From positions 41,850,001 through 41,914,000 of the forward strand of contig NC_043008.1 of the NCBI RefSeq assembly GCF_006345805.1: a stretch of 64,000 nucleotides of DNA, given 5' to 3'. This document shows positions 9,421 to 48,283 of this stretch, piece after piece. Source of the DNA: Octopus sinensis. Taxonomy: Eukaryota. The notes beneath the pieces are model-generated. The model did not search any database. It saw only the letters and a program-made list of their open reading frames with translations, and had not been told where the DNA came from. Within the stretch, counting starts at the first letter, position 1, and every line of letters begins with the position of its first letter. A program made the position numbers and the translations under genes.

Positions 9421-10911
9421 AAGTGCAGATCCAATCTAAATACTCTAAGCAAAAAATCTATATTTTCCTCGAGATAAGTCGAGTGCTTCTTCTTTGTACA
9501 CCTAGATAAATAGATAGATATATAGATAGACAGATAGATACAGACAGACAGCCACACACATACATACCTACATGGATACATATATACATACATACATACA
9601 TACATACATACATACATACATACATACACACATACATACATACATACATACATACATACATACACACATACATACATACATGCATACACACATACATACA
9701 TGCATACATATATACATATATACATATATACATGCATGCATGAATACATATATACATACATACGTACATATATACATACATACATGCATGCATGCATGCA
9801 TGAATACATACATACATATGTGTGTGCGTGTTTGTGTACGTATATTTTTCCATATGGATGTTAACTTTTTGTCTATTTTTGTCGGTTGGTGTTCAAACAG
9901 GATACTTGATCCCCGTTCATGTTTGTCTAATTTTGTTTATTATTTATAATGAATACGGCTATTGTTTTCTGTAACAAGATGATGTGATGCTGACCAATTG
10001 TTCACCATCTATAGCTTTAATCAAGGTAAAGTATGTGAAACATGCTGTACTGGACGCAGAATGACCGATACATTAAGATGTACTCTCACTTGTGAGGTCC
10101 AAGGCTGGATCCCGATACGTGACGTAACTTCGGGCAGTTCCAGGCGTTGTGGGTGTAATTAGGTAGGCGGAAACTGTACGGAAATCTCAGCTACTTAAAG
10201 CTAATTCATTGAGCAATTAGGTGAGTTGATTGAACAATTAAATACTCGTCATCGAAACCGAAGCAGATCCATTTACAGTTTTCGGTCTTTCAAGGAAGCC
10301 GTATGAAACATTTTTATTGGTGGTTTAATTGAATACACCTAACATTGAAGGTATTCTAGCTAGGACCAACGCATCTTTAGATTTCCATCAGTGTATCTAA
10401 GATGACACTGTTTAAGTTTTGAACTGTAGAAAGACTGGATGCAATTGGGGGTAACTTAGATCCTTTACACTGCGTGATCCCTTAATCAAACCCTTATTCA
10501 GTTCACATATACTCGTGGTGTTCACGCAAATGTCGCAGAATGCCACAGGGTTTAAATCGCATTTTGTATGTCTATTAGTGATATTCTCCTTCGAATATAT
10601 ATATAATTGAGAATCTTTTTGTGTGTAAATGTCTGCAGGAATCCCATTTGAAGGGGGCATTATAACTAATCATCATTCAATTATATTTTCATCTTGAATC
10701 GCGTTGCCCCGATGCAGGTGGTTGCTTATTGAGTGTGTAGAATCTGATATCTCCTAGGTACAGAACTTCCTCAGATATTGTCAATTCATTCATACGTGTA
10801 ATGCATCTGATCTCTCTTGATATTGCTTTTCATATCCTTGCTGCACGACAGGAAATTGCATATATTGCAAAGGTCACGTATACGAAGCCAATAATGAACA
10901 AACACATTGAT

Positions 10912-11006
10912 ACACTGGCATATGGCGTAGTGGCTAAGAGCGCGGGCTACTAACCCCAAGATTCTGAGTTCGATTAATAATAACAATAATAATAATAATG
11001 ATGATG

Positions 11007-11076
<70 letters not shown>

Positions 11077-11228
11077 CAACAACATCGAAAAATACCTTAG
11101 GAATGAGAACCCAGGTTCGAAATTTCCGCAAGACACCTGATGAAGGCTGGAGGGTATATCAGCAGAAAAGTGTTAACAACAAACAGGATGAGGTCAAATA
11201 TCTGTGAAATGTAAATAATGTAAATAAT
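10912..11228 (+). mobile_element. tRNA-headed SINE-like element with (TAA)n linker and HHR-derived tail
   Basis: A box TGGCGTAGTGG, B box GAGTTCGATT, CTGATGA...GAAA core, GTAAATAAT tandem tail, and 12-bp TSD AAACACATTGAT (10900-10911 and 11229-11240). Confidence 0.75.
11132..11174 (+). ncRNA. Degenerate type-I hammerhead ribozyme motif
   Basis: GACAC CTGATGA AG GCTG..CAGC A GAAA A GTGTT. Stems I and II are present; stem III and the cleavage triplet appear deleted. Confidence 0.55.
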
Positions 11229-11311
11229 AAACACATTGATGTTCGCACATGCGATGCCAAGGAATGAAACTGGTAAAAGAATATAGGATATATATATATA
11301 TATATATATAT

Positions 11312-11345: not shown

Positions 11346-11532
11346 ATGAAAGCACAAAAAACACAACAACGCGAGGACGTGGAACAAATATAGTATTATT
11401 GGACGCTCAGGAAAGAAGGAAAGAAAGAGGGTTTAACGTTTCGAGCGGAGCTCTTCGTCGGAAACATAGGAGAAGGAAAGATCCAGAGAAGGAAGACAGA
11501 GGAAAAAAAACGCTAACGGTACACGCGAGGCC
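11341..11532 (-). mobile_element. Penelope-like pLTR remnant
   Basis: Pyrimidine-rich tract, then HHR, then GAGCGTC-AA-TAAT motif; same layout as 37800-38008. Flanked by (TA)n. Confidence 0.65.
11431..11465 (-). ncRNA. Minimal hammerhead ribozyme (CCGACGA core variant)
   Basis: Minus strand reads GTTT CCGACGA A GAGC-TCC-GCTC GAAAC GTT AAAC. Confidence 0.7.
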
Positions 11533-11554
11533 ATATATATATATATATATATAT

Positions 11555-11581
<27 letters not shown>

Positions 11582-11585
<4 letters not shown>

Positions 11586-11889
11586 ATATTAATTAGAGAC
11601 AAAACCACTATTTTGAAAATCAAACAAACTCATAACTTAAAATTGAATAGAAGATCTGAAATCCACCTGATGAATGTCCTTAGAAGAGACACGTAACAAT
11701 TGTAGTGGCGAATTTAATTTTATTTAATTTATATTAAATTTTTTAATGTATTGGATTAAGTCTTTCTTTGTTTGATTTGCAAAATAGTGGTTTTGTCTCC
11801 AATTAATATTATATAATATTTTACTATTAAATTGGATTCAATCCTAAATCTGATTTTTCCCTGTAAATTTGGATTTATTCCCTAATATT

Positions 11890-15827: not shown

Positions 15828-16545
15828 TGGTTTGAAATCTTGGCAGAAGGGCAGCAATTTTGAGAGAGTGGGTGAGTCGATTACTCAACTGGTACTTATT
15901 TTATTGACCTCGAAAGGATGAAAGGCAAAATGTACCACGGCGGAATTTAAAGAAAGTAAAGTCGAACGAAATACCTATTTCTTTACCACCCACAAGGGGC
16001 TAAACACAGAGAGGGAAAACAAGGACAGACAAAGGGATTAAGTCGATTACATCGACCCCAGTATGTAACTGGTACTTATTTAATCGACCCCGAAAGGATG
16101 CAAGGCAAAGTCAACCTCGGCAGAATTTGAACTCAGAACGTAAAGACAGACGAAATACCTATTTCTATTTCTTTATTACCCACAAGGGGCTAAACACAGA
16201 GGGGACAAACAAGGACAGACATAGGTATTAAGTCGATTACATCGACCCCAATGCGTAACTGATACTTAATTTATCGACTCCGAAAGGATGAAAGGCAAAG
16301 TCGACCTCGGCGGAATTTGAATTCACAACGTAACGCAGACGAAATACCGCTAAGCATTTCGCCCAGCGTGCTAACGTTTCTGCCAGCTCGCCGCTTTAAA
16401 CATGGCTCTACAAATCGGTTTGAAATTTCGGCACAAGGCCAGCAATTTCAGGGGAAAGGTGAGTCGATTACATCAATTCCAGTTCTTAACTGGTATTTAT
16501 TTTATCGACCCAGAATGATGAAAGTCGAACAAGGCAGAATTTGAG
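15828..16545 (-). mobile_element. SINE family B multimer with internal tandem units of about 185 bp
   Basis: 15965-16150 and 16150-16330 are near-identical repeats. Confidence 0.85.
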
Positions 16546-19460: not shown

Positions 19461-20368
19461 TGCCGCTGATTATCCCGTGGGCATATGGCGTATTGGTTAA
19501 ATATAGACCTATAAAATGAATGGCTTTAGATAGATCGAGATTGTATACCGACGGATAAAACAAAAACTGAAGACCGTACACAAGAGGAAGAATACATATA
19601 ATGCATAGATTAAAGAACATTGGGTGCCGCTTGAATATAAGGAATGAAACTTCAATTTATAATCCTCTAGCTCCAATGTAAGGACCAAATTAAGGAAGCG
19701 GAATTTCTAATTAGAAAATTCTTTCATCACAAAGCGAATCTATTCCCGTGGTCTTTGTCTTATCTTAACTCCTTCACAAACTTTTCGTTTCTCACATGGT
19801 ACTTCTTTTTAAGATTCTCTCCCAACATTTTGAATCGTGCGTTATTCACACAAGAAGCACCTCGAGATTCTGCATACATTATAATATATGTGTACTGAAT
19901 TTGTGTATGTGTCTCTGTGTGTGTGTGAGTGAGTGTGTGCGTGTAAGTGCTATTGAATTACATTCTTTGTGCTAATTAACTTTATTGAGAGTCCAAGGAA
20001 TCTAAACTGAAAATGTAAACACTTGAAATAACACCCACCCCACCCCCACTACTATCACCACCACCACCATACATTTACACTTCTCTTGAATTATTTACTC
20101 TACTTTTGCTTTGTTACCATCCTTTTTCGCAAATAATTCGTCGCCACCTTGGTTTCTCTACTGACAAATGTTCATTGATCAGCCGACGTTACTCTTATAC
20201 AAAGTGTAATCAGCACGCAACAAGAAGCTTAAAGTTGACATTCTATATCTTTCAGCATTGTTTATATATATATATATACATACACACACACATATACTTA
20301 CATATATGCGTGTGTGTGTATATGGATATATATCTATGAATGCATATACATACATACATATATATATA

Positions 20369-20602: not shown

Positions 20603-20661
20603 TTTTTTCAGAATGGGATAAAAACAAGGCTGTGAAGGTTTTATAACGTTATAAATAGAAA

Positions 20662-20709
20662 GTCTTACAGCTGTTTCTGGGATAGTTTTTATATCCCTTC
20701 ATCGGAGAC
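20662..20709 (-). ncRNA. Minimal hammerhead ribozyme (CCGAUGA core variant)
   Basis: Minus strand reads GTCT CCGATGA A GGGATA-7nt-TATCCC A GAAAC AGCT GTA AGAC. Upstream LNTIGIYPQGI peptide resembles a PLE endonuclease end. Confidence 0.8.
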
Positions 20710-21400
20710 GGTGTGAGAAGATGGTTATGCAATAGTTAATTTAGATAAGATATGAAATAGAGAGTGAAGTGGAGGAATGAAAATTGATGTGAGATATGCA
20801 AGGATATTGCATTTGTAGATCCATTATTTAGGCAGAATGGTATACATTTAAGATTCTAATACCTTGTGGGTAAATTCCAATAGTATTTAAAATTGGTCAT
20901 TCCATGTATAGTGTTTGTACACAGTGCTATTGAATCGAGGGTTTATTTAAAGTGACCTAAAAGTAGGGAATGTATTTGTAAAGGTCAAATCGAAAACAGG
21001 AAGAGAGGAATAAATAGAAAAGAAAAGCAAGGAGAGAGATAATAAAGAAGTGAACCATTTAGTGGTCAGTCAAGATAAATTGATAGTAGGAATAGGGAGG
21101 GGAGGGTGATAAAGAGAGAAAGATGTGAGAGTGTAAAAAGATGATAGGGTAAAGAGTAAAGGAGTGTCTGATAGAATGAATGGGGGTCATAGAGAAAGAG
21201 GTATAATAGTGTAAAAAAGAAAAGGAGTGTCAGGTATGTAGTGATAGAGCCTAAGTGATGGGGAAGAGAGAGGGTGTAGGGGTAGTAATATGGTGGAATG
21301 AAGAATTTGGGAATATAGATTAGGTTGGTTGGACAGGTCAGTGCTTAGAAGTAGAAGAAAATATATAGGTGAAGATGTATACAGATGCATATATTAAATA

Positions 21401-37150: not shown

Positions 37151-38005
37151 GGGAGAATTCGCAAAAAAAAGGAAATGACTCTTTTATCTGCACTTCGTTT
37201 TTTACTGTATCTCCTGCGCTTTTTGCCCTTCTCTGTACATCGGTCAGACAGGACGCTGCTTGGCTGACTGGTCCGCGGAGCACCTCCGAAACATTAGATT
37301 CGGTAATTCACCATTTCTGCTCTACCGGTCATTCATTACAACACTTTTCTATGTTCAGACTGTCTTTGCACAGGGGCCATTTGAACTCGTGCCTTCGACG
37401 AGTTTTGGAATTAATCTTCCCTCTTCGCTCCTTTGCCCCACATGGGCTCAACTCCCCTCCCCTCTTCATCTGTCTCCCCTCCTCTCCACTTTTCATCTTA
37501 CACCTACTCCCACTTTTCACTCCTCCCCACCTTCTCTCTTCACTTATATCCCAGCCATCCACACTCCACACCCACACATCCCACTCCCACAACCTCACCC
37601 CAAACCTACACCCCGCACCTACACACCACACCACCACACACCACTCTGCACACACTAGCACTGACCACTTCCCAGCACCACACCACACACTATTATCTGC
37701 ACACATCATCCACACACACAAAAACTCTCGCATACACACACGCATGCACCCCCCTCAGATTTTGGATCACCATGACTTTATTATCTCCCCTTCTCCAGTC
37801 AAACTGTCTTTCCCAACCGGTCGCCGTGATTGATTACTAAATCCACATTTTTTTTTCTATTCTCTCTCTATTTATTTCCTCGTATTCTTTTCTGTTGAAG
37901 AGCATAGGCTGGAAACGTAAAAGACTTTCTCACCCGAGCGTCAAACTAATCCACCTGCTTGTTGTTTATACACCTGTGTTCGTCTTTTGTCTTCCTGTAA
38001 ATTCC

Positions 38006-47900: not shown

Positions 47901-48283
47901 AGTGGAGGCGCAATGGCCCAGTGGTTAGGTCAGCTGACTCGCGGTCATAGGATCGCGGTTTCGATCCCAGACCGGAGGTTGTGAGTGTTTATTGAGCGAA
48001 AACACCTAAAGCTCCATGAGGCTCCGGCAGGGATGGTGGTGATCCCTGCTGTACTCTTTCACCACAACTTTCTCTCACTCTTACTTCCTGTTTCTGTTGT
48101 ACCTGTACATCAAAGGGCCGGCCTTGTCACTCTCTGTGTCACGCTGAATATCCCCGAGAACTACGTTAAGGGTACACGTGTCTGTGGAGTGCTCAGCCAC
48201 TTACACGTTAATTTCACGAGCAGGCTGTTCCGTTGATTCGGATCAACCAGAACCCTCATCGTCGTAACCGATGGTGTGCTTCC
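47901..48283 (+). mobile_element. tRNA-derived SINE (head 1 + tail 1) with TSD
   Basis: A box 47914-47924, B box 47957-47967; TSD ATTAAGCAACT (47890-47900 and 48284-48294). Confidence 0.92.

Follow-up and report, generated by a model that had tools for sequence, protein, structure and literature searches.

A tRNA-like head with A and B boxes in the pLTR of an autonomous Penelope/Poseidon-type element

The unit at 10900 to 11240

The window, the whole stretch of 64 kb that was analysed, contains a 12-bp direct repeat, AAACACATTGAT, with two exact sites (10900 and 11229) that flank 317 bp. The preliminary description of this DNA had reported the repeat, which is indeed unique to these two positions, and had read the enclosed unit as a Pol III-transcribed tRNA SINE that took a Penelope pLTR as its tail. 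Our analysis indicates that the unit is almost certainly a pLTR fragment of a PLE family. Its parts, and a small relic of the same family, are as follows.

10900..10911 (+): left target-site duplication, 12 bp, exact repeat match in the window
10912..11228 (+): 5'-truncated copy of the pLTR of an autonomous Penelope/Poseidon-type PLE, spanning about -2 to +234 of the family
10916..10975 (+): tRNA-like head, family +1 to +60, by the invariant tRNA positions in the family majority
10923..10933 (+): A box, TGGCGTAGTGG, by sequence, with a putative promoter function
10966..10975 (+): B box, clipped, C61 lost, by sequence comparison with the family form GTTCGATTCC
10975..11082 (+): (TAA/TGA/CAA)n linker, TRF period 3, 33 copies at 10975-11073
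11103..11228 (+): start of the PLE ORF within the pLTR, by window translation, with a stop present in this copy
11132..11174 (+): minimal type-I hammerhead, dead, by comparison with the family form GAAACGTTGTGTT
11209..11228 (+): 9-bp tandem (11209/11218) that ends at family +234, a putative RT start site
11229..11240 (+): right target-site duplication, exact repeat match in the window
19474..19510 (+): small remnant of another family copy, a fold-back-type junction followed by head +1 to +22

Family positions +61 to about +75 are deleted from the window copy. The B box described earlier is thus present at 10966 but clipped (C61-C62 and the next ~13 nt are gone), and it is probably weak, since C61 and the following bases are lost. 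An anticodon-like loop, CT-ACT-AA, lies at 10947. In the window copy ARAGORN called no tRNA, Rfam recognised neither a tRNA nor a hammerhead, and a search with an A/B-box pattern gave no match. Since ARAGORN and Rfam were negative, the identity of both parts follows from the position of the motifs and from the family. The linker differs strongly in length between family copies. The 9-bp tandem is found at 11209/11218 as described, but it is not a tail, many family copies running on for about 27 nt.

The hammerhead motifs of the window copy are GACAC-CTGATGA at 11132, GAAA at 11165 and GTGTT at 11170. Compared with the family this copy has the closing pair of helix II changed (C>A), C15.2 changed to A and a deletion of 3 nt that removes G16.2-U16.1-H17, confirming the absence of the helix III pair and of the NUH triplet. 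A natural intact copy folds into helices I and II (-13.6 kcal/mol), whereas the window copy adopts another fold (-8.8 kcal/mol). With a dead hammerhead and a clipped B box, we agree that this copy is inactive. The start of the head does recur near 19480 (a match of 21 nt at 90%, with E=0.003 in a search of the window); the junction motif of this relic is also present at two other loci (L057, L058), and the relic is perhaps joined to a pLTR end.

The family and its coding element

The genome searched is a microsatellite-rich animal genome of 2.72 Gb, in which exact matches to a 22-nt hammerhead motif number 3,887, against none for the control. Searches with the tail and the head yielded 1,384 and 359 candidates, respectively; 40 of each were scored and the best 30 loci examined, and counts out of 29 exclude the window's own locus. 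The head was co-linear upstream in 21/29 of the tail-selected loci (best 30 of 1,384), and the tail was found downstream in 24/29 of the head-selected loci (best 30 of 359). Among loci selected with GIY, the head lay at most 60 nt from the endonuclease end in 26/29 and the tail at most 300 nt from it in 21/29. The co-linearity of head and tail on which the preliminary description depended is therefore found elsewhere, and its recurrence in three selections (21/29, 24/29 and 26/29) refutes a single-locus accident, in which an unrelated tRNA SINE would have come to adjoin a PLE fragment by chance. No point in support of such a nesting was found and we give it practically no weight.

An autonomous Penelope/Poseidon-type element has as its pLTR the head, the (TAA)n linker and the hammerhead together. 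At two tail loci the coding sequence ends directly 5' of the head, and one tandem (L159) has the order GIY end, head, tail, ORF N-terminus, RT, GIY, head, tail. The column majority of a MAFFT-based alignment of 308 fragments, from which redundant loci were dropped, is 2,645 nt long and has a single open frame of 783 codons. Along the element, the ORF stop is followed after ~30 nt by the head, the TAA linker, an ATG and the minimal hammerhead; next come two 3' ends, RT and GIY-YIG. The ORF begins at the ATG that matches window position 11103, and the frame crosses the hammerhead into the RT; in a natural copy (L248) 401 codons are open from the linker, and the N-terminus aligns with a relative (P0003) from the hammerhead-coded peptide onward. 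The tail was thus correctly recognised as a PLE pLTR, the GAAAC-GUU core being intact in the family. The SINE with a borrowed Penelope tail, on the other hand, did not hold up: the same head lies about 30 nt past the stop of the coding element, as seen in the 26/29 GIY-selected loci and in the tandem. What is unusual is the presence of a tRNA-like A/B-box head inside the pLTR of an autonomous element.

RVT_1 was matched by 2/4 natural pieces, with an E value of 2.5e-11 in L073. The search for relatives gave twelve longer homologs, of which the best have 54-68% identity and the same precomputed Pfam set. GIY-YIG (PF01541) was matched by 3/9 aligned members, with invariant Y/R/H/E columns; the family's own piece gave no Pfam match. 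A model of the C-terminus has a pLDDT of 78, and its top Foldseek match is the I-TevI catalytic domain (probability 0.90 but E 0.48). By eye, no Zn-finger-like linker between RT and EN is visible in the alignment. Such a linker has been reported to set Neptune/Nematis apart from Penelope/Poseidon (PMC8557442), and its absence therefore indicates the Penelope/Poseidon clade. A pLTR, partial tandems, inverted 5' copies and an optional 3' tail are all present in the family, as in Penelope/Poseidon PLEs. Judged from the domain and pLTR features, the evidence points to a member of Penelope/Poseidon. An intron in the pLTR was also considered and is unsupported, the best 15 of the 68 joints in the RNA-seq data (the best-supported ones) containing no intron-like joint in the pLTR.

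The family hammerhead consists of a helix I of 5 bp, CUGAUGA, an unpaired A, a helix II of 6 bp and GAAAC-GUU, without a loop III. By its sequence it is the known minimal PLE type, for which CUGANGA, GAAAC-GUH without loop III, a helix I of 4-5 bp and an unpaired base before helix II have been described (PMC4209133); the same source describes a helix II of 7-8 bp for Schistosoma, compared with 6 bp here. The intact GAAAC-GUH for which the preliminary description proposed to look is thus present in the family. The 3' core GAAAC-N-T-H-GTG is kept in 16/64 ORF-selected and 14/29 head-selected segments, and much of its loss is due to CpG decay. The 3-nt deletion of the window copy occurs in 4/64 ORF-selected segments as well and is therefore no marker of a SINE. 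In the conserved core the sole common non-CpG variant concerns N7, a free position (15/97). Compensatory stem variants were not found within the family, and aligning and folding hammerheads across families gave no consensus structure. The hammerhead is dual-coding (L159, L248, N-terminus of P0003), and neither the recurrent deletion of 3 nt nor the 9-bp tandem disrupts the reading frame. Distant PLEs on metagenome contigs (L262-L264, L271, L278, L279) share the minimal core GAAACGTT with a different helix II and without an A/B-box match.

In the family majority of the head, T8, A14, G15, Y32-U33-R37 and G53-T54-T55-C56-R57-A58 are at canonical tRNA positions. The A and B boxes are perfect compared with the consensus. 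Decay has instead affected the acceptor, D and T stems, a contrast suggesting that the boxes are under selection. In line with the decay of the stems, ARAGORN called none of 82 heads a tRNA with default settings and made four scattered calls with a 90% threshold, and Rfam found no tRNA match in the head. Among 26 loci of distant PLEs from a metagenome scan, mostly with 26-46% identity, none matched the A/B-box pattern.

Insertion, 5' ends and transcription

The 3' ends and target-site duplications were studied in a sample of 90 loci on contig C1, which cover 93 of the 100 motif matches listed first. The 3' ends cluster near +234 and +261. Flank repeats with at least nine matches were present at 25/90 loci, two of the 25 being mutual duplicates, compared with 1.7 in mismatched pairs, and the target-site duplications of the family are 10-13 bp long. 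The duplication in the window is therefore ordinary for this PLE family and, contrary to the earlier reading, not a hallmark of a SINE. An inverted partner is located upstream in 19/29 tail-selected loci. Copies often adjoin the TAA tails of other retroelements (L002, L016, L021, L026, L043, L182, L212), suggesting that the family is targeted to TAA microsatellites or expanded within them.

The number of copies drops at the 5' edge of the head. Exact 18-mers have 8,882 matches genome-wide for the tail (+104), 5,870 for the head (+32), 1,042 at -30 and 1,010 at -194, the end of the ORF. Correction with rough match rates from aligned selected loci (80/195, 65/139, 25/68 and 42/66, respectively) gives about 21,700, 12,600, 2,800 and 1,600 copies, and a 4-6-fold step at the head edge remains. 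Roughly four fifths of the head-bearing copies end within 60 nt at this edge. The 5' ends were mapped in hammerhead-selected loci, head-selected and redundant loci being excluded: among 84 head-bearing ends, 64 lie at -19 to +20, one at -40 to -20, 13 farther upstream and six past +20. The upstream edge of the cluster is at -7/-6, about 13 nt before the A box, with small peaks at -1 and +1. This distance matches the spacing in tRNA genes. A TATA-like TTTATAA, overlapping the stop codon, is located 30-24 nt upstream of the same edge. Some full-length copies (L246, L249, L250, L253) reach past the 5' head into GIY sequence, which shows that longer templates exist.

The 2,645-nt unit contains 12 T3 runs and neither a T4 nor a G4 run; the short unit from head to tail likewise has no T4. 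The probability of finding no T4 was 0.057 with synonymous permutation, 0.010 with positional synonymous permutation, 0.048 with codon shuffling and 0.016 with mononucleotide shuffling, but 0.12 and 0.29 with Markov-1 and Markov-2 nulls. In natural copies, which are not mutually independent, 20 T4 runs occur in 72,617 nt (O/E 0.13). PLE ORFs of other eukaryotes have 81 in 18,452 nt (O/E 1.56; 20/26 loci, five near-duplicates and one 156-nt match being excluded). Four ORF sets of the same genome, which we assume to be LINE-like, have an O/E of 0.72-0.92 for T4 and 0.40-0.59 for G4; a low G4 content is therefore general in this genome but a low T4 content is not. At the T4 rates of these sets the Poisson probability of no T4 is 0.045-0.004. 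At the codon level, avoidance of T was borderline, with a P of 0.053 for Phe (TTT:TTC 5:14) and of 0.50 in the NTT test. Altogether, the absence of T4 is a suggestive, not conclusive, sign of Pol III use.

RNA data comprised three raw runs from organism C (~6% of each) and one contig set from organism A, which was guessed to be RNA. Head- and ORF-matching reads are present in organism C. The RNA-seq data are unstranded, with a depth that mirrors genomic copy number, and 65-70% of the raw reads continue into unlike sequence; reads over the pLTR show no pile-up of beginnings or ends in such data, which speaks on neither side where Pol III or hammerhead cleavage is concerned. The main loose-end site at the head edge in the reads of organism C is a fold-back at a small hairpin and hence not independent support for the start site.

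We consider it likely that the RNA's 5' end is located at the head, and Pol III is rather probably the polymerase. Our main reading, with a probability of about 0.6, is that transcripts start at the head by Pol III and that the short copies are run-off cDNAs of the same masters. The RNA would begin some 13 nt upstream of the A box. The PLE protein would nick the target, and reverse transcription would start inside the RNA at +234 or +261; if uncleaved RNA is copied through the hammerhead as far as its 5' end, this would generate the unit from the head to +234/+261, with fold-back or template jumps often giving the inverted partner. The template could be the 5' pLTR of the full-length RNA or the RNA of solo pLTR copies. 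The in vitro data available for PAc, the anole Poseidon, likewise show use of uncleaved RNA and an internal RT start (PMC11167929), so that run-off at the RNA 5' end would be the simplest cause of the pile-up of 5' ends. Mobilisation by Penelope RT, as suggested before, would be correct, the nicking and RT step being modelled on the anole Poseidon. The family works partly like a SINE, with short, PLE-mobilised, probably Pol III-started units that are not independent of their partner.

Pol II might instead start from a TATA/initiator at the head edge, as could be expected from D. virilis Penelope with its internal pLTR promoter of the Pol II type (PMC2377424). The anatomy would be the same, the head being the relic of a SINE or tRNA that was captured and T4 being missing by chance, which the Markov nulls do not reject; the TATA-like sequence fits the edge equally well and a capped mRNA would solve the problem of translation. 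However, the perfect boxes beside decayed stems suggest box selection, the edge lies at a distance from the A box that is typical of tRNA genes, the T4 rate is far below that of other PLE ORFs and of the LINE-like ORFs of the same genome, and no intron-like pLTR joint was seen among the best 15 of 68. We therefore regard transcription by Pol II from this edge as unlikely. That the head is promoterless, the ends resulting from RT stalling or fold-back at a TGCCC/GGGCA hairpin or from RNase P cutting of read-through RNA, appears very improbable to us. It is true that local fold-backs are flagged at 23 of the 64 clustered ends and may make part of the peak, that the main loose end in organism C is a fold-back at this very hairpin and that eight ends are exactly at +1. 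The other 41 ends, unflagged, join unrelated sequence, though, the hairpin has just 5 bp and a 2-nt loop, the poorly paired acceptor and T stems would presumably make a weak RNase P substrate, and the depletion of T4 would be left unexplained.

An independent Pol III SINE lineage with its own masters, in which a tRNA head is combined with a pLTR borrowed from a PLE and which is mobilised by PLE RT in trans, would account for the ~80% of head-bearing copies that start at the head; the short unit is T4-free and could be transcribed alone, and Sm-alpha is a precedent. The autonomous element carries the identical head, however, and a comparison of 31 short with 84 ORF-linked segments revealed no diagnostic site (best P 0.004 of 61 tests), a small sample in which minor SINE subfamilies are possible. 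Both groups share linked variants and are of similar age, with divergences of 5.8-5.9% vs 6.4-6.6%. Of the traits of SINE2, the tRNA-derived head with A and B boxes is present in the family; a non-autonomous lineage with a head absent from its partner is not what we found, as the head is in the autonomous element. We think such a lineage improbable and retain transcription from the head of shared masters, rather probably by Pol III.

A further, tentative extension, which we rate as somewhat doubtful, is that the autonomous coding element (~2.6-2.9 kb) is read end to end by Pol III from the tRNA-derived promoter of its pLTR. If true, the ORF would be kept free of T4, an uncapped RNA would be translated, and the 5' end of the transcript would yield about ten thousand SINE-like copies. 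Kojima argues that the autonomous partners of elements with Pol III promoters must use Pol II (PMC10886601), and a similar argument is made in PMC5786205. A coding element driven by Pol III would be new, would go against the working rule of Pol II use by autonomous retrotransposons and would be a natural example of a long Pol III RNA that is translated. Should Pol III make only short RNAs, a SINE-like family would still have been born from the repeat of an autonomous element, which suggests a route for the origin of elements of the Sm-alpha type. The head model predicts the 5' end of the PLE RNA within a few bases.

Related systems and neighbouring elements

The family resembles Penelope/Poseidon elements (D. 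virilis Penelope and anole PAc, PMC11167929) in its single ORF with RT and with GIY-YIG at the C-terminus, and in the start of the ORF in the pLTR across the hammerhead, an overlap that is similar in the anole Poseidon (PMC11167929). Two RT start sites or 3' ends about 27 nt apart and an optional tail are reported for PAc as well (PMC11167929), and partial tandems, inverted 5'-truncated partners and the minimal hammerhead are further common features. It differs in the tRNA-like A/B-box head and TAA microsatellite of its pLTR, in the T4-free unit and in showing no intron; the tested promoter of Penelope is moreover of the Pol II type (PMC2377424).

A tRNA SINE joined to a hammerhead, presented earlier as a novelty, is not new in itself: Sm-alpha and Sj-alpha of Schistosoma are described as tRNA-derived, apparently Pol III units followed by a hammerhead (PMC6765202, PMC2770079). 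These are non-coding, in contrast to the unit studied here, which forms the terminal repeat of an element that codes for protein, with dispersed copies and PLE-type inversions. TRIMp3 Helenus, Ajax and Cassandra also have a small-RNA-derived Pol III promoter within a terminal repeat, but they are non-autonomous LTR elements of at most ~1.3 kb (PMC10886601). Animal non-LTR retrozymes are likewise short non-coding hammerhead units from PLE pLTRs; they are defined as tandem arrays, and the accessible part of their description mentions no tRNA head (bioRxiv 10.64898/2026.07.22.740005). Copies of our family are mostly single or inverted pairs (90 position-ordered loci), not tandem arrays. PLE hammerheads, tRNA-headed hammerhead SINEs and Pol III promoters in non-autonomous LTRs are thus already known from the sources available. 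In the full-text literature covered, to the extent accessible and with Repbase, Dfam, subscription journals and supplements outside its scope, no autonomous PLE is reported to have a tRNA-type promoter in its terminal repeat; the portion seen of an octopus repeat survey names Penelope families but gives no detail at the level of head or hammerhead (PMC13282606).

Several other elements are located in the window. Three hammerhead-like motifs lie within 600 bp of the unit at 10900..11240. At 11663-11728 (+) a second minimal-hammerhead-like motif, of another family, has a helix I CCAC/GTGG, CTGATGA, a palindromic CAATTG and GTAA in place of the core GAAA, and sits in an AT-rich stretch with inverted ends (~11570-11815). 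The hammerhead-like motifs at 11433-11466 (-) and ~20660-20710 (-), with CCGA replacing CTGA in the core, are probably pLTRs of other PLE families. A GIY-YIG-like frame fragment with a YIGQT motif at 37179-37655 (+), without a Pfam match, belongs to another PLE, which we take to be Neptune-like. At 47914 (+) and ~62700 (-) there are two heads, with intact A and B boxes, from another tRNA-derived SINE family. At 15887-16348 a 190-bp unit is repeated 2.5 times; this abundant repeat is also present in many of the loci examined.
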